Of a DNA stretch of 64,000 nt, positions 1-52,130 are shown in pieces. Location of the stretch: the IMG/VR virus record IMGVR_UViG_3300045988_081423. The stretch is one strand, 5' to 3'. This stretch comes from a virus. Within the stretch, counting starts at the first letter, position 1; every line of letters starts with the position of its first letter. The notes below the pieces were generated by a model, which saw only the letters and a list, made by a program, of their open reading frames with translations, was not told the origin of the DNA and ran no database searches. The position numbers and the translations under genes were made by a program.

Positions 1-405
1 TTTAACAAGAAGAGCATTGTGGCTTTATGGGTATTTGGAACTGTTAATTTTGTGATACAGTTTTTGCCAAATTTAGTATATGGTGAAAACTGCTTCCTTT
101 TTGTTTCTTTTATTTCAAATTATTTAATTATACCAGTATCAATGCTATTTTTCTATAATTTGGTTTCTTTTAAAATTAATTATTTTACTTGTTTAATGTG
201 TCAAATAATAAATTGTTTGTTTATATTAATTATAGTAAGTATATTTAATAGTATTGCATATTCTTATAATTTGTTTTGTCCTGCAAACAGATTTCATGAG
301 TTTATTTCTAATTTTGTAATATTCTTCATGCAAATCATGTTATATACTATTATAAAACATAGGAGATTTTACTATGAAAAATGTTGTAAAAATCATCGCA
401 AATAA
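1..405 (+). CDS. polytopic membrane protein, C-terminal part (frame open to the window edge)
   Basis: Frame 1 has no stop from nt 1. The product is almost entirely hydrophobic helices and ends KHRRFYYEKCCKNHRK. Its 3' end is overlapped by an AgrD-like peptide gene, so it may be an AgrB-type partner, but no R..GG.H motif is visible in the part present. Confidence 0.35.
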   Translation, partial: FNKKSIVALWVFGTVNFVIQFLPNLVYGENCFLFVSFISNYLIIPVSMLFFYNLVSFKINYFTCLMCQIINCLFILIIVSIFNSIAYSYNLFCPANRFHEFISNFVIFFMQIMLYTIIKHRRFYYEKCCKNHRK

Positions 406-505
406 TTCTGTTGAGAAGGCTTTTACATCTTTTAATTATTATCAGCCTAAAATGCCAAATTCTCTAATGGAAAAGGCTATTAACGAAAATAAGAAGGAGA
501 ACTAA
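374..505 (+). CDS. AgrD-like autoinducing-peptide precursor candidate (43 aa, no cysteine)
   Basis: AGGAGA at 361-366 precedes ATG 374, with stop TAA at 503-505. Sequence: MKNVVKIIANNSVEKAFTSFNYYQPKMPNSLMEKAINENKKEN. It has a leader helix, a short core, then a QPxxPxSL motif and a charged tail, resembling the P-x-x-L recognition tail of AgrD (S. aureus ...EVEVPKELTQLHE). It falls below the 60-aa ORF-track cutoff. Confidence 0.55.
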   Translation: MKNVVKIIANNSVEKAFTSFNYYQPKMPNSLMEKAINENKKEN

Positions 506-542
506 TCCGACTTATATTATTATAGACATTATAGAATAATAT

Positions 543-579
543 AGGGGAGTCGGCTTGTTAGCTGGCTCCCTATTTTTTT
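543..579 (+). terminator. rho-independent terminator after the peptide gene
   Basis: Stem AGGGGAGTCGGC / GCTGGCTCCCT (one bulge, two G-U pairs), loop TTGTTA, then a T7 run at 573-579. Confidence 0.7.
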
Positions 580-600
580 GTAAATAAGGAATATTCTGTT

Positions 601-1206
601 ATGGATATTTTTAGATATATTGAAGACATATCTTATAAACTCGGTTTAAAGGTTGCGAACTATTTCCATGAGGACAGTGATGGAATTGAAGAGACGCAAT
701 ACGGTATGTTTGCTATTTTAAGCTTTTTGTTTGAATTTGGAACTGGGCTTATTATATCGCTTATTTTTGGATATGTCAAGTATTTTCTTGTATTTCAAAT
801 TACTTATTGTTTTCTACGTTCTGTTTGCGGTGGTGAACACTGTAAGACATTTGCTTCTTGTTGGGCAGTAACAAACATTATCTCATTTATTGGAAGTATG
901 ATGGCTATTTTATTATCCGTAAATAATATGTTTGTAATGATTGGAGTTATTATTACATTTCTGTCATCTGTTGATATGTTTTATATTATTCCAAAGCCAA
1001 GCGAAAATTCTCCTAGTAGAGGAAGTAGAGATATTGAGTTTAAAAGACGTTATATTAAGGGAACTTGTGTGCTAATTTTCTTATCTTGTATTTTGGTGTT
1101 TTTTAATATGCAATTTGTTTCTGCTTCTATTTGCTCTGCCTATATTATGTGTTATATTATGCTTTCCAAATATGGAAAGAAATTTATGAATATGTTTAAG
1201 TTTTAA
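601..1206 (+). CDS. agrB: AgrB-family accessory gene regulator protein B (peptide-processing membrane protease)
   Basis: 201 aa with multiple TM helices. LRSVCGGEHCKTFASC matches the AgrB catalytic His/Cys spacing (S. aureus RRHAHGAHAPSSFWC). A downstream Pro-rich loop reads IIPKPSENSPSRG. Confidence 0.8.
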   Translation: MDIFRYIEDISYKLGLKVANYFHEDSDGIEETQYGMFAILSFLFEFGTGLIISLIFGYVKYFLVFQITYCFLRSVCGGEHCKTFASCWAVTNIISFIGSMMAILLSVNNMFVMIGVIITFLSSVDMFYIIPKPSENSPSRGSRDIEFKRRYIKGTCVLIFLSCILVFFNMQFVSASICSAYIMCYIMLSKYGKKFMNMFKF

Positions 1207-1212
1207 TTAATT

Positions 1213-1294
1213 AAAGACCAGAGGATAGAAACATTAAGCTGCTATCACCCATTGTTAGGAGATACAGGTTCTTTGGCTTGCCTGTCTGGTCTTT
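1213..1294. repeat. 10-bp inverted repeat AAAGACCAGA / TCTGGTCTTT enclosing about 62 nt
   Basis: Read directly from the sequence; followed by TTATTATTT. It could be a long-loop terminator for agrB or flank structure of the IscB element. No cloverleaf is present. Confidence 0.4.
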
Positions 1295-4072: not shown

Positions 4073-6859
4073 ATGGAGGTATCCGATGTGATAGAACAAG
4101 AAATTACGTTGCTTACTAATGGTAGAATTTCTTTCCAGAAATGCGGGAATGGTCTACAGTTTGGATATTCTAAAAATCGTGGTGTATACAGTATAAAAGT
4201 AAAAACTTCTGGTGAATGGAATGGTTTAACGATTCGCGCATTTTGGCATATCCCGGACATTAAAGAGCCAATCACCTCTTTATTAGTAGACAATGTTATT
4301 AGAGTTCCTGCATTGGTTACTAGTTATAAAGGTGAGGGGAGGATTGTATTTGAGGGTTCCGATGGAGTCAAAACTGTAACGAGTGCAGACATTCGCTATT
4401 ATGTAAACAAAAATAGCGGAACCTGTGACGGTACAATTCCAGAACCGGGAACGCCAGCTTGGCAAGAGCTTGTTGGCACTGTAAAGAAATATTCCGATAC
4501 TGCTGTTGAAGCAAAGGAGTCTGCTAAAAAATCAGCGGATGAAGCAAAACAAGCTCTTGAAGATACAAAAGATGTAAAGAGTCAGGCTATTGAAGAAATT
4601 AATTCTTCAAAAACTGCGGTAATCGAAGAGATTGAGAACAAAAAAAATTTATCAATTGAAGAAATTAACAGTGTAAAAGAAGATGCAAAAGGAGAGCTAG
4701 AGACCCTTTGTGATTCTACCCGGGATTTTGCAAATCAGGCAAAAGAAGCCGCAGACAGAGCAAAAGCAAGCGAACTTGCCGCAAAAGACTCTGAATTAAA
4801 ATCTAAAGAAAGCGAAAGACTGGCAAGTGAATACAAAAATTCAGCTAATGAAAGTGCAAACGCTGCATTAAAATCAGAAGAGAACGCTTCAATAAGCGAA
4901 TCTAATGCGACCGAGGCAGCCAATAGAGCATTGATATCTGAAAATAATGCAAAATTATCTGAGACAGCCAGTGATAATAGCTCTAAAAAAGCATTTGATA
5001 GCGAAACAAAAGCAAAAGCATCCGAAATAAATTCTTCAAATAACGCTGTCAACGCAGAACACTCTGCAATAAATGCTGCGGCATCGGCTGATGCCGCAAA
5101 AGGCTCTGAGGACAAAGCAAAAACAAGTGAAATTATTAGCACAGCAAATACGGCAGAAGTAGCAAAAAATCTTGAAACAGTCAGGGATATTAAAGCCGAG
5201 ATTGACATCTTAGACGCTAATGTGTCGGCTAATGCGGCAAGTTCAAATGAAAATGCGAACAATGCAAGAATCAGTGCGGAGGCAGCAAAACAATCTGAGA
5301 CGAATGCTGCATTAAGCGAGGCGTCTGCTTTAGAGAGCAAAAATGCTTCTGCGGAAAATGCTGCAAAATCTCAAAATAACGCCTCTAACGCAAAAAATAG
5401 TGCAGATAGCGCAAAAGAAAGTGAAACAAAGGCACAAGAATATTCTAATTTATCTCAGTCCAACGCTAATGCTTCGAGTGAGTCTGCAAGTAATGCAAAA
5501 GCAAGCGAAGGTGCTTCAAAAAAGAACGCAGACGATTCTGCGGCTACCCTACAAGAACTGAAAGACGGAATTGCATCTGGAAACTTTAAAGGCGAGAAAG
5601 GTGACAAAGGCGACCCCGGCCCGGCAGGCAAAGATGCCCCGCAAATTGATGATACCACCGTGAACGACTCTGCCCCATGGAGCAGCAAGCACATCGTGGA
5701 TGTGCTCTGCCCACCGATGGAGGAGACCGGAAACCCCGTGACGTGCTACCCGGTGGAAAGTTATCCGCTGGGGGTGACTGCCAGCTGGGAACCGACGCAG
5801 GAAGGCAGCGGTGACCCATCGCCTGACAATGTTCGCCCAATTAAGGGCAGGGACAGCGTGACAGTGGAGCGGTGCGGGAAGAATCTGCTAAAATTAAATG
5901 AACGAATTATCGACAAAGAAACAGTGATACTCAAAGAAAACGACCTTGTTTTCCTGTCAAAATGTTTTCACGGCAAGGACGTGACGCTCACATTTGCCTG
6001 TGACACGAAAGATATTGTTTTCTCGGACACAGCGGAAAAATGGAGAAAAAGAATCGGATATGAATGTCATGGTTTTTTGGACGATGGAACTGAGGTATGG
6101 TCTCTCCAATGCTGGCTGACTGATGGACAAGACAACCTTACAAGAAATGGAAAGCATAAAAAAACTGTTACTTTGAAGATGCCGAACATTGTGAAAGGCA
6201 CGATTAACTTTTATGCTCAAAATATAAAATCCGGCACCTTCACAGCGTATGATTTTGGAATCTACGCGGGCGGCACATTGCCAGATAATCTTGCACAATA
6301 CAACGGTGTATCTGTGCCACTAGCCTTCCCCTCCACCATCTACGGCGGGACGGTGGATGCAGTGAGCGGTGAGAGCAGTAGAACATGGCGAACTATTACT
6401 TTGACAGGCGAAGAAAGCTCTCATATTTATTCGACAATTTTCTATCTTGATTTCAATAAAGACAGTTCCTTTGTGGCAGAAGAACCTGTTGACTTAGCAA
6501 CTGGCAAAAGCAGCCACTATCGCTATACGACATATGCGAATGATTCAGTAGGAGTCACATTAGATGGATATTCCGTGGTGTATTCCAGCAATGGCAAGTA
6601 TCCTATATCTGATGAGGGTTTACGAGAATGGAAATCCTACCTCGCCGCCCAGTACGCGGCAGGAACACCTGTCCAAATCGCCTACAAGCTGGCAACTCCA
6701 ACGCCTTTCACCGCAACCGGCGCACAGCCTATCTCTTCTCTGAGCGGCGTGAACACCCTAATGACCGACGCGAACAATGTAACCGTTACCGGCAGAGCAG
6801 ACCCCATCAAGCGCATCACTGACCTTGAGGACGCTGTGGCATCAATGACCAACACATAA
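4073..6859 (+). CDS. tail-fibre-like protein (N-terminal anchor, long Ala/Ser/Glu/Asn coiled-coil shaft, short G-X-Y run, GC-rich C-terminal domain)
   Basis: The shaft is about 400 aa of SAxxAxxSExxA-type repeats, followed by GEKGDKGDPGPAGKD and a globular C-terminus. GTG 4088 (GGAGGT 4075-4080 plus 7 nt) may be the true start. Confidence 0.6.
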   Translation: MEVSDVIEQEITLLTNGRISFQKCGNGLQFGYSKNRGVYSIKVKTSGEWNGLTIRAFWHIPDIKEPITSLLVDNVIRVPALVTSYKGEGRIVFEGSDGVKTVTSADIRYYVNKNSGTCDGTIPEPGTPAWQELVGTVKKYSDTAVEAKESAKKSADEAKQALEDTKDVKSQAIEEINSSKTAVIEEIENKKNLSIEEINSVKEDAKGELETLCDSTRDFANQAKEAADRAKASELAAKDSELKSKESERLASEYKNSANESANAALKSEENASISESNATEAANRALISENNAKLSETASDNSSKKAFDSETKAKASEINSSNNAVNAEHSAINAAASADAAKGSEDKAKTSEIISTANTAEVAKNLETVRDIKAEIDILDANVSANAASSNENANNARISAEAAKQSETNAALSEASALESKNASAENAAKSQNNASNAKNSADSAKESETKAQEYSNLSQSNANASSESASNAKASEGASKKNADDSAATLQELKDGIASGNFKGEKGDKGDPGPAGKDAPQIDDTTVNDSAPWSSKHIVDVLCPPMEETGNPVTCYPVESYPLGVTASWEPTQEGSGDPSPDNVRPIKGRDSVTVERCGKNLLKLNERIIDKETVILKENDLVFLSKCFHGKDVTLTFACDTKDIVFSDTAEKWRKRIGYECHGFLDDGTEVWSLQCWLTDGQDNLTRNGKHKKTVTLKMPNIVKGTINFYAQNIKSGTFTAYDFGIYAGGTLPDNLAQYNGVSVPLAFPSTIYGGTVDAVSGESSRTWRTITLTGEESSHIYSTIFYLDFNKDSSFVAEEPVDLATGKSSHYRYTTYANDSVGVTLDGYSVVYSSNGKYPISDEGLREWKSYLAAQYAAGTPVQIAYKLATPTPFTATGAQPISSLSGVNTLMTDANNVTVTGRADPIKRITDLEDAVASMTNT

Positions 6860-25516: not shown

Positions 25517-26036
25517 ACAAAAGTTCAAAGAGAGTATTCCTAAAGATGTGGCAGTAATTAGACTGCATGATAGCGCAAGTGGTTTTGGACAAGATAGTAG
25601 GTCAACAAGATTTTCTATGAAATCTCCGTTTGACTTTATCTTGTTCAAAACTCCTTGTATGTATTGTTTAGAACTAAAATCAACAGACAAGAAAAGTTTT
25701 TCTTTTGAACGTGAGAAACCAACGAAAGAAAATCCTACTAAACGAGAAATTCATTGGCATCAAATTCAAGCTCTTACTGAGTATAATAAATATTGTAATT
25801 GTATATGTGGTTTTGTGTTAGACTTTAGAAATGATGGAACTTATTTCTTGAGTATCAAAGATTTTAATAAATTTAAAGAAGAATCAACTAAGGTTTCAAT
25901 AAATATTCAGGACTGTATTGCGCATGGTGCTGTTCAAATAGATAAAAAATTAAAAAAGAAATATTATAGCTACGATGTGGCAAAGTTATTAGATAAGATT
26001 GGAAGTGACGAAATTGGGAAGAAGAACCGTATATAA
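25494..26036 (+). CDS. RecU-like PD-(D/E)xK Holliday-junction resolvase (putative)
   Basis: SPFDFILFKTP..YCLELKST...IHWHQIQAL matches the RecU-type D..E.K..hQ motif order. ATG 25494 is preferred over 25467. Confidence 0.5.
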   Translation: MNVGKIFEQKFKESIPKDVAVIRLHDSASGFGQDSRSTRFSMKSPFDFILFKTPCMYCLELKSTDKKSFSFEREKPTKENPTKREIHWHQIQALTEYNKYCNCICGFVLDFRNDGTYFLSIKDFNKFKEESTKVSINIQDCIAHGAVQIDKKLKKKYYSYDVAKLLDKIGSDEIGKKNRI

Positions 26037-27057
26037 TAGGATTTATACAGAAGAAATTTGGGCAAAGGTTAACGAAGACAATAAAAACTTGTTGAAAGAT
26101 TATCTTGCATATAAGACTACTGGCGGTCGTTCTCCACAGACGATTTATCAATATGAACAAATGATTCGTCTGTTTTTCTGTTGGAATTATTTGCATAATA
26201 AAGACACGTTCTTTGTAGATTTGAAGAAGCGGCAACTCGTTAGTTTCTTTAATTACGCAATCACAGAAATGGGATGGTCTAGTAATAGAATCTCTACTAT
26301 TAAATCATCTCTATCTTCTATGTCAGATTATATTGAAAATGTTCTTGATGATGAGTTTCCTGATTTTAGAAATATTGTTGTCAAACTGGAAACTCCTGTA
26401 AAGCAGACTGTTCGTGAAAAGACTGTTATGAGCGAAGAGCAGATTCAAGATTGTCTTGACAAACTAGTTGCTGCTAAACGATATCAGGCTGCTTGCTATC
26501 TTGCACTTGCCGTTAGTTGCGGTGCGAGAAAAGCAGAGCTTATTCAGTTTAAGACAAACTGGTTTACTGATGAAAATATTGTTTATGGCTGTATGTGGAA
26601 AACACCTGAACAGATTCGTACTAAAGGGCATGGTAAACAGGGCAAGTTGCTCTATAAGTTTACCTTTATTAAGTCATTTAAACCATATTATGAGATGTGG
26701 ATGAAATATCGTAAAGAAAATAATATCGAAAGCGAATGGTTGTTTATTGTGAAAAATGATGATGACACTTATCGTCAAGCAAGTATTTCAACAGCAGATA
26801 GTATTTGCAGAACAATCTCAGCCTTTATGAATACGGATTTCTATAGTCACTGCTGTAGGCATCGTTACGTTACTATGATGAAAGAATCTAAACTGCCAGA
26901 CGATGTTATTATTGCTCTTGTGGGCTGGGAAGCTGGGTCAGGAGGGGCTATGTGCGCAACTTATTGCGATTTAGACACCGCCGACACACTTGGTGATTAT
27001 TTTGATGAGAACGGTATTAAGCAAGATATTAAAACTGGTACTCTGAATGATATTTAA
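25999..27057 (+). CDS. tyrosine recombinase (phage integrase/Xer family)
   Basis: N-terminal SAM-like core-binding domain. Catalytic-type motifs: GARKAEL (Arg), HCCRHRYVT (H-x-x-R), LVGWEAGSGGAMCATYCD (Tyr). Non-ATG start, either TTG 25999 or TTG 26017. Confidence 0.75.
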   Translation: MEVTKLGRRTVYNRIYTEEIWAKVNEDNKNLLKDYLAYKTTGGRSPQTIYQYEQMIRLFFCWNYLHNKDTFFVDLKKRQLVSFFNYAITEMGWSSNRISTIKSSLSSMSDYIENVLDDEFPDFRNIVVKLETPVKQTVREKTVMSEEQIQDCLDKLVAAKRYQAACYLALAVSCGARKAELIQFKTNWFTDENIVYGCMWKTPEQIRTKGHGKQGKLLYKFTFIKSFKPYYEMWMKYRKENNIESEWLFIVKNDDDTYRQASISTADSICRTISAFMNTDFYSHCCRHRYVTMMKESKLPDDVIIALVGWEAGSGGAMCATYCDLDTADTLGDYFDENGIKQDIKTGTLNDI

Positions 27058-28360: not shown

Positions 28361-30181
28361 ATGGCACAAGCACAAAGCGATTTATTTAGTTTTCTAATTA
28401 CACCAGAATTTGATACAAAAGATGTTACAGATAGCGCACAAATACTACAAAAAGAGCTTGAAAAAGTTGCAGAAAAAATATCAATACAAATAAGTAAAGC
28501 AATGGGAAAGGGTTTTTCGTTCCCATCTGGTTTTCAACCAAAAGATATTAATGAAGTAACAAAATATATCGAAACCCTTGGGGGCAGCGTCAAACGTGTT
28601 GGAACTGTCATAACTTCTTCTTTCAAAGATGCAAGCGGAACAGTAACAACCCTAAAACAAAACATCAACGACGCTATAAATTCTGCTCAGTTGGCAAGCC
28701 TACAATCTATGAGTGGAAATCCTAAGAATATAGATATTATAAATAAACAGTATGCTCAACTAAGAAGTTCTAGTGCTACATACACTGGAACGGAACAGGT
28801 TAAGCAACAAAACGAATTAGAACAACAGATTATTAAATCTTTGCAAGAGCGATATAGCTTAGAGGGTAAAATATCAGACGCAAAAGCAAGCGGAAACAAG
28901 ATTACAGAAACTTATTATACGCAACTAAGAGATATTGCTGTTGCAGAAGAACAACAATTAGAATCACAATATAAAGGTTCTCAAACACGAATAAATTCCG
29001 TGAAACAGCAGTTGTCTCTTGAACAACAATTGCGACAACAAAAGGCACAATCTACTGCGGAAGAAAATAAAGCTGTTGAGGCCATAAAACAATACGCAAA
29101 ACAATATCAGACTGTCAAGCAATTAGAGAGCAAAGGTCAACAAAACACTCAGGCTTATACTGATGCTAAAAATGCTTTACAGCAGTTAACAAATACTTTA
29201 ACAACGTATGGTGTTAAAGTTGTAACAAGCTCCGACGGCACAACAAAACTTGTAGCACAACAAAATTCAATGGCTGACAGCTCCAATAAGGTTAAAACAG
29301 CGTTGGACAATGCCAATGGCAGTTTAGTAAAAACTGATACTGCACAAAATTCCCTATCGCAATCTATTCAGTCTAGTGTAGAGAACTTTATTAAATATCA
29401 GGTGGCTATGGAAGCCATCAACAAAATCACTAGCGAATTCACATCTGCAATTTATGATATGAACGAAGCCATGACACAGGTTCGTATGGTTACAATGGGT
29501 AGCTATGAAGATACTGTGGCATTGGCTGATAGTTATACTAAATTGGCAAAGCAACTTGGTACTACTACGACCACAGTTGCAGAAGGTGCAGATGCTTGGT
29601 TAAGACAGGGTTATAATGCTCAAGAAGCAATGGAGATGCTAAAACAGTCAACTACGTTGGCTGTTGTTGGTCAATTGGACGCAAGCGAGGCGACTGACCA
29701 ACTCACTGCAATCACAAAATCCTATAATGTAGCTGTAGACGATACAAGCAAAATCGTAGATAAACTTGTGCAAGTAGACCTTTCCTACGCGGCCAGCACA
29801 GGTGAAATTTCTACAGCATTACAGAAAGTCGCTAGTTCTGCTGGACAGGCGGGGTTAGGACTTGATAAACTAATCGGTCTAATTACTATTTCTGAGGAAA
29901 AGACTCGACAAGCGCCAGAAGTTATTGGGTCTGCTTGGCAGAGTATCATCTCGCGTATATCAAAAATCACGGCAAAAGTAGATTTGGATGACCTCGTTGA
30001 TGAGCAAGGTATAACCCACACAATCAATGATGCAGATAAAGTTCTATCCAAATACGGAATTACACTAGTTGATACAAACGGTAAAATGCGCGAAATTGGT
30101 ACTGTTCTTGATGAAATCGGTGCAAAATGGAACAGCATGAGCACTCTTGAACAGAACCAGTTGGCTTATGTTGTCGCCGGT
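28361..30181 (+). CDS. tail tape measure protein, exon 1
   Basis: AGGAGGTGGG RBS. Coiled-coil-rich, with the conserved TMP core (...LGTTTTTVAEGADAWLRQGY...QLAYVVAG). The frame is lost after GGT at 30181. Confidence 0.75.
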
Positions 30182-30235
30182 TCGATAAGTGCTGGCGTAA
30201 AACGTACTTAATTGACGGGAAACCCCTTTAGAGTC

Positions 30236-30265
30236 TTGACAACTAAGTTATTATAGTGATATAAT
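30236..30265 (+). promoter_or_regulatory. sigma-70-like promoter inside the intron, upstream of the HNH ORF
   Basis: TTGACA at 30236-30241, an 18-nt spacer, and TATAAT at 30260-30265. Confidence 0.45.
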
Positions 30266-30525
30266 AATGGTTGGAAGTAATCAATCCAAGTATAGTAAAA
30301 TAGTCAAGAATTGGGCAACCCGCAACCAAGCAACTATGAAAATAGTTGAAGGCTCAACGACTATCCAGTTAGCGTTAAATTAACGCAATAGGAGTAGGGC
30401 GCAATTCGCTACTGCGTGGGTGAAAACCCCTTAAATCGAAATGGTACGGCATATCATAGATATGCAAGATATAGTCTATTCTCATGCAAAAGCATGAGCA
30501 TTTTTATGTTATATTGAGGTTATAA

Positions 30526-31518
30526 ATGGGAAAAGTAATCAGATGGACAGACGAAGAAATTCAATTATTAAAAGAGCATTATCCTAATGATTCATGGGAT
30601 AATATTTTATCTTTTATTCATAGAGAAAAAGGAAATATTATTACCAAAGCAAGTAAACTTGGAATCGTAAGGAATAGTCCAAATAAAAAGATTGAATGGT
30701 CTGACGAAGAGGTTGAAATTCTTAGAGGTGTTTATCTAACAACAAGGCTAGAAGACATTCCGAGACTGCATTTACCAAATAAATCCAAAGATGCCATTAT
30801 TAGAAAAATGGGAGAACTAAGGTTGCTAAAATCAAAACCTTGGACACAAGGAGAAATAGAAAAATTTATCAAATTATATCCAAACACAGACAATAAAGAA
30901 CTTTGTAAAATATTTGGAAGAACAAAGAATGCCATAATCAACGAATCTCAAAAACTTAATTTATATAAAAGCAATAGATTCACAGAGGAAGATATTGCTT
31001 TTATAAGAAACAACTATCTTAAAATGTCAGATTTTGAAATCGGAGAAATTCTCGGCCATCATTGGAGAGTCGTAAAGGATAAGCGTTTGTCTTACGGATG
31101 GAAACATTCTGAACCAATCTTAGGACAAGGATATAAAAGTATTGTTGAATTTTGTCGTAAAAGCACACCCGGTTGGAGAAATGAGAGTATTGCATATTGT
31201 AATCATAAATGTGTAATCACAGGAGAAGAATTTGACGACGTTCATCATCTTTATTCTGCGAATCTCATTATAAAAGAAGTCGCAGACATTATTCCTCTTG
31301 AACCAAACGCTTCTCCCGAAATGTATGACGAGGAATATCTTGGAGAGATTCTTGACTTATTTGATAAGAAACAGCGAGAGTATGGACACGGAGTTTGTTT
31401 GACAAAAGAAATTCATACGATGTTTCATAAAGAATATGGATTCGGGAATAATACAAAAGGACAGTTTCTTGATTTCGTAGATAAACATAGTTTTAAATTA
31501 TTAGTCGATATAACATAA
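30526..31518 (+). CDS. HNH homing endonuclease with four SANT/Myb-like W-x-[DE]-E-E repeats
   Basis: Repeats: IRWTDEEIQLLKEHY, IEWSDEEVEILRGVY, KPWTQGEIEKFIKLY, NRFTEEDIAFIRNNY. HNH region: CNHKC..DDVHHLYS...CLTKEIHTMFH. Confidence 0.75.
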   Translation: MGKVIRWTDEEIQLLKEHYPNDSWDNILSFIHREKGNIITKASKLGIVRNSPNKKIEWSDEEVEILRGVYLTTRLEDIPRLHLPNKSKDAIIRKMGELRLLKSKPWTQGEIEKFIKLYPNTDNKELCKIFGRTKNAIINESQKLNLYKSNRFTEEDIAFIRNNYLKMSDFEIGEILGHHWRVVKDKRLSYGWKHSEPILGQGYKSIVEFCRKSTPGWRNESIAYCNHKCVITGEEFDDVHHLYSANLIIKEVADIIPLEPNASPEMYDEEYLGEILDLFDKKQREYGHGVCLTKEIHTMFHKEYGFGNNTKGQFLDFVDKHSFKLLVDIT

Positions 31519-50915: not shown

Positions 50916-52130
50916 TTATTCACCAGCTTTGAAGTTATAAACAGGTTTGATGTGATTTATAATTTCAACAGTAGGAGAAATTGCGTCGATAATTTCCTGT
51001 GATGGTTTATATGCCATTGGGCATTCATCCAGCGTATCTTCGTTCACAGAGGTTGAATAAATTCCATCCATCTGCTTCTTGAACTCGTCTATGCTAAATG
51101 CTTTCTTAGCTGCCGCCCGGCTATACATTCTGCCAGCACCATGAGGTGCAGAGTAGTTCCAATCAGAGTTTCCTTTTCCAATACAAATCAGACTCCCATC
51201 TTTCATATTGAGAGGAATAATCAACTTCTCGTCCTTTTTGGCAGAAACAGAACCTTTTCTAATAATGTTATCAGACATATCAATATAATTATGAACCGTT
51301 TGGAAAAAATGAATTTCTGGAATCTTTTTCTGTAGACCAACACCATTAAGGATTTCATTCATAATATGAAGTCTGTTCATAGTTGCAAATCTCTGGCAAA
51401 TAAGCATATCACAAAGATATGCTTCACGGTCTTCACCCTCAAGATAACAAAGTTCATTTGGGATATCAGGGAACTTAAAATTTAACTCAAAAAGTTTCTG
51501 GGAAATTTCTTTTTCTCTTCCCTCTGCCTTTAACTGCTTGACAAGAGCATTAATAGCCTCTTTCTTTTTGTTCTTACCTTTTAGATTTGAAATCGCAACA
51601 TTTTGGTGGTACTCTGCTACCTGTTTTCCAAGATTGCGGCTTCCAGTGTGAATCACTAAATACTGATTATCGTCGTCGTCTTCATCCAGTTCGATAAAGT
51701 GATTACCGCCACCAAGAGTTCCAAGACTACGAACAATCCAGTCGATATTATGCAAGAAGTCTTTACAAGTTAAATTATACAAGAAATTCTCTTCGAGAGT
51801 TGGTTTTTCATGAACAGCCATTCCGGCAGGAATACGCGCATGGATTACATCGTCTAGTTTCTTAGGGTCAATATAGTTCTTGCCAAGTTCAGCGACCAAC
51901 ATACCACAACCGATATCTACACCAACAATGGAAGGAATAACCTTATTCCCTAAGTCAGCGGTAAAACCAATAACGCAACCAGTACCAGCATGAACATCAG
52001 GCATAATACGGATTTTGCATCCATCCACAAAACTCTGATTACACAAAGTTAGAATCTGCTGAGATGCGGATTCTTCAATGTTATCAGTAAATACTTTTGC
52101 GGCAGCGTATTTACCCTCAATCAGCTTCAT
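50916..52130 (-). CDS. rtcB: RtcB RNA 3'-phosphate ligase
   Basis: MPDVHAGTGCVIGF, GVDIGCGM, GGGNHFIE, IHTGSRNLG, VHNYI, APHGAGR. This is the full RtcB metal/GMP-His motif set. Confidence 0.9.
   Translation of the reverse strand: MKLIEGKYAAAKVFTDNIEESASQQILTLCNQSFVDGCKIRIMPDVHAGTGCVIGFTADLGNKVIPSIVGVDIGCGMLVAELGKNYIDPKKLDDVIHARIPAGMAVHEKPTLEENFLYNLTCKDFLHNIDWIVRSLGTLGGGNHFIELDEDDDDNQYLVIHTGSRNLGKQVAEYHQNVAISNLKGKNKKKEAINALVKQLKAEGREKEISQKLFELNFKFPDIPNELCYLEGEDREAYLCDMLICQRFATMNRLHIMNEILNGVGLQKKIPEIHFFQTVHNYIDMSDNIIRKGSVSAKKDEKLIIPLNMKDGSLICIGKGNSDWNYSAPHGAGRMYSRAAAKKAFSIDEFKKQMDGIYSTSVNEDTLDECPMAYKPSQEIIDAISPTVEIINHIKPVYNFKAGE

Follow-up and report, generated by a model that had tools for sequence, protein, structure and literature searches.

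The stretch analysed here, referred to as the window, comprises 64,000 nucleotides (nt) of viral DNA (IMG/VR record IMGVR_UViG_3300045988_081423). Its first 1206 positions carry the 3' part of a membrane protein gene, here called X, followed on the same strand by agrD and agrB, the predicted precursor and processing enzyme of an Agr-type peptide. These positions are probably the right portion of a phage module of three genes, X-agrD-agrB, whose product is a secreted peptide of Agr type. A sequence-only reading of the same DNA, made before this analysis, had already pointed to agrB and to a short peptide gene upstream of it, and its claims are taken up below together with the results that bear on them. 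The features are the following:

1-405, plus strand: gene X, 3' part (residues 32-165), a membrane protein of 165 residues, predicted to have five helices; truncated by the left window edge
361-365, plus strand: Shine-Dalgarno sequence AGGAG of agrD, read from the sequence, 8 nt 5' of the ATG at 374
374-505, plus strand: agrD, encoding the 43-residue precursor MKNVVKIIANNSVEKAF-TSFNY-YQPKMPNSLMEKAINENKKEN; TIGR04223
425-439, plus strand: predicted AgrD core T18-S-F-N-Y22, with Thr18 as the presumed ring-former and Tyr22 as the presumed C-terminus after AgrB cleavage
440-502, plus strand: AgrD follower (tail) YQPKMPNSLMEK..., with a P-x-x-P motif; region presumably recognised and cleaved by AgrB
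544-580, plus strand: terminator-like hairpin with a 12-bp stem (7 GC pairs), then ATTTTTTTGT; between agrD and agrB
601-1206, plus strand: agrB, encoding a predicted membrane cysteine endopeptidase/cyclase of 201 residues, PF04647; His80 at 838-840, Cys87 at 859-861, PKPSENSPSRG loop at residues 131-141

AgrB, the AgrD precursor and their arrangement

The assignment of agrB, which the sequence-only reading had based on a hallmark motif and a Pro-rich loop, was borne out. The open reading frame (ORF) at 601-1206 matched the Pfam AgrB family PF04647 with 91 bits (E 8e-26, cutoff 23), residues 17-188 covering model positions 3-181 of 185, and both LRSVCGGEHCKTFASC and the loop are present. The NCBIfam equivalog PRK01100 reached 48 bits against a cutoff of 282; judged by these scores, the protein is a member of the family and not an ortholog of that equivalog. 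H80, C87 (GGEHCKTFASC) and the PKPSENSPSRG loop were invariant in 8 phage AgrBs, down to 35% identity. The spacing of His and Cys equals that in a Ruminococcus AgrB and is also the same as in S. aureus AgrB, whose catalytic pair is H77/C84. The agrB product, which is named "accessory gene regulator protein AgrB" in IMG, is by its motifs a genuine member of the AgrB family that has the catalytic His and Cys, and endopeptidase/cyclase activity is predicted for it.

The 43-codon ORF upstream had been proposed as AgrD because of its good Shine-Dalgarno sequence and its layout of leader, core and charged tail, and this identification likewise stood. The peptide scored 23.3 bits on NCBIfam TIGR04223 (quorum_AgrD, cutoff 19), and relatives of it reached 30.8, 25.5, 22.1, 20.7 and 19.3 bits. 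It consists of a 17-residue N-terminal leader, a 5-residue core and a YQPKMPxSL follower, and its stop codon lies 95 nt upstream of agrB. The resemblance of the tail to known AgrDs is borne by the P-x-x-P motif, which is shared with the Ruminococcus AgrD and whose role is taken from PMC3901668. An agrD ORF was found just 5' of agrB in 16 of 18 related IMG/VR loci; the peptide exists in 24 distinct database variants, and it was kept in two distant phages, L020 (AgrB 34% identical; AgrD sequence MKKFLKNIAMNSVEKAFTSMNHYQPKMPKALLSKIRSK) and L023. Its position upstream of agrB is conserved in more than 40 related phage sequences. These variants follow the pattern F-T-x-x-x-x-Y-Q-P-K-[ML]-P-x-[SA]-L, with YQHKMP in one database variant and YTPKMP in one distant fusion as exceptions in the follower.

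The peptide, which the sequence-only reading described as missed by the ORF track, is annotated in databases. Exactly the window peptide is deposited as DAE07238.1, "MAG TPA: AgrD [Siphoviridae sp. ctOSJ35]" (UniRef A0A8S5PJK3), is called "cyclic lactone autoinducer peptide" by one source, and NCBI, UniRef and IMG all carry AgrD or cyclic lactone autoinducer naming. The recognition of AgrB and AgrD in this phage is not new to databases; in the open-access literature searched, no paper describing this phage module was found. The short length of the ORF and its score near the family cutoff would also fit a chance or non-functional reading frame next to a real agrB. However, it is preceded by a Shine-Dalgarno sequence, its invariant motif is kept in phages with an AgrB only 34% identical, its tail is the same as that of a bacterial AgrD within a complete agr locus, and it was annotated independently in three public sources. 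Conservation effectively refutes the idea of a chance ORF, to which we attach practically no weight.

With regard to the gene order, the succession of membrane ORF, peptide, terminator and agrB described in the sequence-only reading is present, but its description as non-canonical needs correcting. In a Ruminococcus metagenome-assembled genome (MAG; L033), a LytTR response regulator, a HATPase_c_5 kinase, agrD and agrB (133 bits on Pfam AgrB) follow one another as agrA-agrC-agrD-agrB, so agrD before agrB is not a phage oddity. The gene directly 5' of agrD is agrC in Ruminococcus and X in the phage. The proposed terminator between agrD and agrB was confirmed as a hairpin with a T-run, and positions 500-600 fold with a z-score of -3.1 relative to shuffled sequences. 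A comparable hairpin comes after agrD in L023, a distant relative; L020 has no such hairpin, and its agrD-agrB gap is only ~30-40 nt.

The absence of agrC and agrA from the window, noted earlier, was supported by phmmer searches with the Ruminococcus AgrC and AgrA as single-sequence queries, a design that a very divergent kinase could escape. The AgrC search covered all ORFs of at least 60 residues in the window, in the remainder of the closely related phage genome MT835481.1 (L034, 13 kb outside the window) and in five relatives, and it returned no significant match in any of them, the best being a 125-residue His-less protein of L020 at E 0.009. AgrA had no match in the window and no significant one in the relatives (best E 0.005, a 70-residue ORF in L023). 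No kinase or LytTR regulator was found by phmmer in the remaining 13 kb of MT835481.1 or in related loci, and the precomputed lists of Pfam matches on neighbouring genes of relatives contained none of AgrC or AgrA type.

Ring residue and predicted product

As the sequence-only reading had stated, the core of the window peptide contains no Cys. Its proposal of Ser as the nucleophile of a lactone did not survive the comparison with relatives, in which Thr18 is followed by S, N, A, M, I, F or T. Ser19 was ruled out as ring nucleophile on account of this lack of conservation. Thr18 is invariant in more than 40 sequences and stands at the position of the ring Cys, and the four residues after it are hypervariable. 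Membership of the AgrD family is usually recognised by a Cys (rarely Ser) five residues before the cleavage site; the phage peptides have the invariant Thr at this place, position 23 of the TIGR04223 model. In the alignments to this model, phage AgrD residues 18-32 fall ungapped on positions 23-37 and Ruminococcus AgrD residues 10-46 on positions 2-38, and therefore Thr18 of the phage and Cys31 of Ruminococcus share position 23. The same register emerged when GTDB genomes were scanned at the DNA level for the pattern F-[T/S/C]-x4-YQPKMP: two Ruminococcus MAGs encode ...NADNF-C-AWWH-YQPKMP[ND]AV... and the remaining matches looked like chance; here, F-T-x4-YQPKMP of the phage aligns with F-C-x4-YQPKMP.

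The boundary between core and follower was set by homology. C. difficile AgrD1 (NSTCPWIIHQPK), which yields the autoinducing peptide (AIP) ANST[CPWII] (PMC8534292, PMC12312760), contains ...ANSTCPWIIHQPK (PMC8534292). Its ring ends just before HQPK, which matches a cut between T-S-F-N-Y and Y-Q-P-K in the phage AgrD. The same comparison puts Thr18 at the ring Cys of AgrD1, in agreement with the other two, independent alignments. By this homology the predicted core is T18-S-F-N-Y22 with the follower starting at Y23, one residue earlier (YQPKMP) than in the previously proposed core TSFNYY. A six-residue T..Y ring with cleavage after Y23 was ruled out, since the C. difficile and Ruminococcus homology puts the cut before [H/Y]QPK. 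The predicted product would be a five-residue Thr-lactone, T-S-F-N-Y, which has no experimental precedent. Calculated [M+H]+ values of candidate lactones are 613.2617 for TSFNY, 760.3301 for FTSFNY, 831.3672 for AFTSFNY, 959.4621 for KAFTSFNY and 1088.5047 for EKAFTSFNY; each linear form would be 18.0106 Da heavier. An invariant hydroxyl residue at the nucleophile position with four hypervariable neighbours is the look to be expected of a lactone-forming AgrD.

Weighing against such a lactone, the AIP rings in the published tables and reviews consulted are closed by Cys or Ser only (PMC12312760, PMC8251862, PMC11953309), and no AIP with a Thr ring was found in the open-access literature searched in full text, so that the chemistry is without precedent. 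Thr is a secondary alcohol and a poorer nucleophile, and AgrB might release a linear peptide; alternatively, the invariant Thr18 could be a recognition element for AgrB instead of the nucleophile. AgrB would then act as an endopeptidase only, with water in place of Thr resolving the acyl-enzyme intermediate and ...AFTSFNY as the linear product, an outcome that fits both the ring position devoid of a conserved Cys or Ser and the missing literature precedent for a Thr ring (PMC12312760). What renders a linear product unlikely is the strict invariance of Thr in more than 40 sequences amid hypervariable neighbours. In three more distant X-AgrD fusions the matching position is apparently T, T or S (read by eye, the register being without alignment support), which would fit a hydroxyl requirement at the nucleophile position. 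If true, the Thr-lactone widens the known enzyme chemistry of AgrB and affects the mining of AIP precursors, for which at least one recent study assumes Cys or Ser as the ring residue (PMC11953309).

Gene X, the variable island and the proposed mechanism

The sequence-only reading mentioned the membrane ORF upstream of agrD, which runs off the left window edge, but did not take it further; it is the most unusual component of the locus. A full-length form of X (P0035) has 165 residues and is 99% identical to the part in the window. The end of X and the start of agrD share 32 nt, read in different frames, and judging from this overlap X is translationally coupled to agrD. In L023 (5001-5606), X and AgrD share one frame in a 201-residue ORF with an internal Shine-Dalgarno sequence and ATG for the peptide, and three further cluster representatives (P0097, P0102 and P0111) are fused in the same way. 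In E. faecalis, fsrD is similarly in frame with fsrB.

A profile search of X through 1.84 billion representative proteins gave only 47 relatives of 36-201 residues (full-length ones ~145-201). No member of the family exceeds 201 residues, which leaves no room for a kinase domain. Searches against Pfam, PHROGs and NCBIfam assigned X to no family, apart from a match of one member to Peptidase_U4 at E 0.006, and its profile found nothing among PDB sequences (best E 3.3). An AlphaFold2 model built from 39 sequences is a confident five-helix bundle with a predicted local distance difference test score (pLDDT) of 90 and a predicted template modelling score (pTM) of 0.81; a first model from four sequences (pLDDT 55) was unusable. 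With Foldseek, the model matched nothing in the PDB (best E 2.4, TM score <0.35) and in BFVD only itself, as 'Uncharacterized protein [Siphoviridae sp. ctOSJ35]'. A CPBP/MroQ-like protease was considered and rejected, as the motifs are lacking and there is no profile match. According to the positive-inside rule, applied by eye, the N-terminus would face outwards and the basic tail the cytoplasm. Helix 1 contains two invariant residues, N11 and E14 (N-P-x-E), and conservation reaches at least 90% at P12, Q51 (helix 2), E131 and N135 (E-x3-N, helix 5). In this topology all of these residues lie towards the outer leaflet, with helices 3-4 and the loops being most variable.

The divergence of X was followed in 15 related phages aligned over 3.2 kb. 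The mean pairwise DNA identity was 0.88-0.98 upstream, dropped to 0.56-0.60 in X and 0.77 in agrD, and rose again to 0.87-0.94 in agrB. Phages with the same AgrD core have X proteins that are 93-100% identical, whereas different cores go along with an X identity of 35-70% (mean 46%) and an AgrB identity of 88-95%; a single core change, TSLGW versus TSLGH, is accompanied by 70% identity in X. The identity of X correlates with that of the core (r = 0.81) and of the leader (r = 0.81), and with AgrB at r = 0.55. X changes along with the AgrD core, giving discrete types, with AgrB and the remaining genome 88-95% identical; the two form a hypervariable island in genomes that are elsewhere 90-95% identical. 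The conservation of AgrB between types fits an enzyme recognising the near-fully conserved YQPKMPxSL follower, and the depth and sharp bounds of the X/agrD divergence argue for diversifying selection. A clean natural experiment is provided by genomes that are near-identical except for sharp differences confined to a peptide core and one membrane protein.

For the role of X, three possibilities were weighed; the weights are rough, hold within this question and are separate from the confidence given to the rival explanations of the module. A kinase-less receptor is a tentative candidate, supported by the operon position, the hypervariability and the outward-facing polar pocket. Equal weight is given to a leader-processing or export factor, which is supported by the coupling or fusion with the precursor, the conserved intramembrane polar residues and the co-variation with the leader. 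An immunity protein comes a distant third. Likeness of X to AgrC is limited to operon position and hypervariability. In distant relatives, two small genes lie 5' of X (L001 4841-5471, L020 2780-3470, L023 4332-5004), neither of which matched a family. The first encodes ~118-126 residues, in the L001 and L020 versions with two hydrophobic segments and then a charged, probably helical tail; the second encodes ~93-120 residues, the L001 and L020 versions beginning with MKRNxxSNRSK[KR]WxERN. They could join the module, for example as transducer or regulator.

In the mechanism that we propose, AgrB would cut between Y22 and Y23 and hold the peptide as a thioester on Cys87, as is inferred from the biochemistry of the AgrB family. 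The side-chain hydroxyl of Thr18 would then attack the thioester to close a lactone ring of five residues, which may carry a short exocyclic extension at its N-terminus, and a leaky terminator after agrD would provide more precursor than enzyme. With lower confidence, the peptide may be a type-specific extracellular signal, a 'pherotype', and X its co-evolving partner, most likely as a kinase-less receptor, else as a leader-processing or export factor. A partnership of X with the peptide is supported by its position, equivalent to that of agrC in the Ruminococcus locus, and by the conserved polar cluster towards the predicted outer face.

Several further observations speak against this account. 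The TIGR04223 score of the window AgrD exceeds the cutoff modestly, one relative reached only 15.4 bits, and three distant peptides had no match. The co-variation of X and AgrD could be linkage within one recombining block and not interaction, since the two genes are adjacent and linkage alone could yield it. Aligned with hhalign, the X profile showed no similarity to phage AgrB, Ruminococcus AgrC (probability 0.5%) or Brevibacillus phage Davies gp45, and its cytoplasmic tail of ~15 residues offers no visible signalling route. A scan of 185,579 GTDB representative genomes with the back-translated AgrB motif gave 68 pattern hits and 0 relatives.

In the far-reaching version of the proposal, X would be a membrane receptor of a new, kinase-less kind with a phage-made Thr-lactone as its ligand, and X-AgrD-AgrB a self-contained, pherotype-specific system of phage-to-phage communication in the human gut, a counterpart of arbitrium that uses Agr chemistry and senses outside the cell. 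We put this forward as a doubtful but possible reading. The known cases of phage-encoded communication are mainly arbitrium and phages eavesdropping on host autoinducers. If X is such a receptor, phages that co-circulate and are otherwise near-identical could distinguish kin from non-kin by their X/AgrD types. This would mean a receptor family and a form of viral kin discrimination in the gut that are both new.

Much of the same evidence can be read as manipulation of the host, in which a phage-made AIP mimic activates or blocks the AgrC/AgrA of the host and X serves in maturation or export, by removing the leader or transporting the ring peptide, like MroQ or SpsB in staphylococci. AgrC and AgrA were not found in the phage, whereas both are present in the bacterial relative that shares the YQPKMP tail. 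The coupling of X to the precursor gene, or its fusion with it, is typical of precursor-processing partners, the conserved polar residues of X lie inside the helices as in an enzyme or transporter, and X identity correlates with leader identity as well as with core identity (0.81 both). There is also a precedent in phiCDHM1, whose agr genes are thought to act on host quorum sensing (PMC3901668). On the other hand, MroQ does not differ from one agr group to another (PMC12312760), whereas no gene of the region varies more than X. Moreover, X resembles neither CPBP/Abi proteases nor any peptidase family, except for the one Peptidase_U4 match (E 0.006), and no host with a Thr-type or otherwise cognate agr system was found in the GTDB pattern scans. 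Host manipulation is, on balance, rather unlikely. Adjacent, coupled and co-diversifying genes for a small peptide and a multi-pass membrane protein are also the signature of bacteriocin and immunity genes, so the AgrB-processed peptide might be an antimicrobial or competition factor with X as the membrane immunity protein. Such a toxin-immunity pair appears very improbable, as the characterised AgrB/AgrD products listed in the literature consulted are all signals (PMC12312760), X belongs to no known immunity family, and a five-residue ring would be very small for a membrane-active toxin.

Phage context and comparison with known systems

The phage origin of the DNA, assumed in the sequence-only reading, was corroborated by its gene content, which includes portal, terminase, tape-measure domain, endolysin, large DNA polymerase, primase-helicase, exonuclease, RtcB and integrase-like recombinase genes. 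The genome MT835481.1 (74.7 kb, human faeces, an unannotated "Bacteriophage sp.") is ~90-92% identical to the window, has an AgrD core of the TNFAH type and was the only match of AgrB and AgrD in a tblastn search of 50,697 GenBank phages. AgrB occurs at 84-96% identity on 18 IMG/VR contigs of 62-150 kb; the protein database contains 34 AgrB clusters, the nearest with 416 member sequences, and the exact window AgrD peptide was found on 128 contigs. The X-agrD-agrB module is conserved across a prevalent human-gut phage lineage.

Directly downstream, 8 nt past the agrB stop, a skipping-rope RNA motif is located at 1214-1293 (plus strand; Rfam RF02924, 47.7 bits versus a gathering score of 36.7), which was found in a small-region scan and missed by the whole-window scan at the gathering threshold. 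It is a structured RNA without known function (Weinberg et al. 2017, PMC5737381). A promoter-like site follows at 1278-1306, in a region common to MT835481.1. Right after the skipping-rope RNA, an insertion of ~1.6 kb (1312-2915) is exactly absent from MT835481.1, in which 1311 joins 2916. It contains an IscB ORF at 1643-2908 (NCBIfam guided_IscB, E 4e-100; Pfam RRXRR and HNH) and upstream of it, at 1356-1570, a HEARO/omega-RNA (Rfam RF02033, 76.3 bits, E 4e-15, just below the gathering score of 83). Located just past the agr module, the unit has the look of a mobile element acquired recently.

Other elements lie further away in the window. An integrase-like tyrosine recombinase gene (25999-27057, plus strand; phrog_1, E 6e-26) is situated inside the structural gene block, and an RtcB-type RNA ligase gene (50916-52130, minus strand; phrog_1075, E 1.5e-130) among the replication genes, where it may counter tRNA-cleaving defences of the host. 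A group I intron (30157-30498, plus strand; Rfam RF00028, 54.8 bits) comes after the tape-measure-domain gene at 28361-30211; 3' of it follow an ORF with HNH-endonuclease and D5-like matches (30526-31518) and then a 1436-residue ORF, which suggests an intron and homing endonuclease splitting a tail gene. A few kb downstream of agrB (L020 5649-7073, L023 7502-8992, L022 11367-12533), relatives encode an Mtd_N-domain protein, and one has a reverse transcriptase (RVT_1), suggesting a diversity-generating retroelement that targets a receptor-binding protein. The equivalent place in the window (4073-6859) holds a 928-residue low-complexity, collagen-like tail-fibre candidate, and no reverse transcriptase was seen there.

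The closest bacterial counterpart is the Ruminococcus sp. agrA-agrC-agrD-agrB locus (JAFTQW010000063.1; also DAPZRL010000042.1, L024). It has the same D-then-B order and an AgrD of the same F-[nucleophile]-x4-Y-Q-P-K-M-P layout, with Cys where the phage has Thr, and its AgrB shares the Pfam family and the GG-H...C motif with the phage AgrB at 22% identity. In place of the HATPase_c_5 kinase that is found there together with a LytTR regulator, the phage slot 5' of agrD is occupied by X, with 165 residues, no kinase and no detectable AgrC homology. From the AgrD tail shared with Ruminococcus, a host among the Oscillospiraceae or in Ruminococcus may be guessed.

Among phages, Hargreaves et al. 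(2014, PMC3901668) described the agr3 cassette of C. difficile phage phiCDHM1 (agrC, agrB, agrD), in which agr genes are carried, as in the present module, by a phage and without a response regulator; the host of phiCDHM1 is clostridial. However, phiCDHM1 has a histidine kinase, and none was found in this phage; its genes are 54-61% identical to those of the C. difficile host, whereas the AgrB described here has no relative in GTDB representative genomes. Pherotype-like polymorphism was not described for phiCDHM1, in contrast to the marked pherotype structure observed here. The same concept as in the window is met in the Brevibacillus phages Davies, Emery and Abouo, with AgrB, a putative AgrD and one membrane protein, or two, without HATPase_c (PMC3901668; KC595518, L021), which Hargreaves et al. 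considered possible kinase-less AgrC analogues (PMC3901668). The small Davies peptide gp47 (...KVSIGNPVAPKELRK) is Cys-less like the phage AgrD, but does not match TIGR04223. The order there is membrane-membrane-AgrB-AgrD, unlike X-agrD-agrB, the membrane proteins have ~220 residues and no profile similarity to X, and the carrier is a temperate 46-kb myovirus of a soil bacillus, whereas the present lineage is a highly prevalent one of the human gut. Reports establishing a function of the phage agr genes of phiCDHM1 or the Brevibacillus phages were not found in the literature searched.

With regard to the chemistry, the Ser-lactone AIPs of S. pseudintermedius (RIPT[STGFF]), C. difficile Agr2 (NSA[SSWVA]) and E. 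faecalis (GBAP) (PMC12312760) employ an oxygen nucleophile for Cys, as proposed here. They use Ser, a primary alcohol, whereas the conserved phage residue is Thr. The variable island resembles the staphylococcal agr groups, in which a hypervariable AgrB-AgrD-AgrC segment forms discrete types of peptide core and membrane partner in near-identical genomes, and AgrD and the AgrC sensor co-diversify (PMC12312760). The staphylococcal variable block includes AgrB, whereas the phage block excludes it and has X, of no known family, as the variable partner. The arbitrium AimP/AimR pherotypes of SPbeta-like phages would be a functional parallel. Compared with the Brevibacillus and phiCDHM1 cassettes, the module differs in four respects: its AgrD is of TIGR04223 type and carries Thr where the nucleophile is expected, its membrane protein belongs to an unrelated family, it has a marked pherotype structure, and it is highly prevalent in the human gut.

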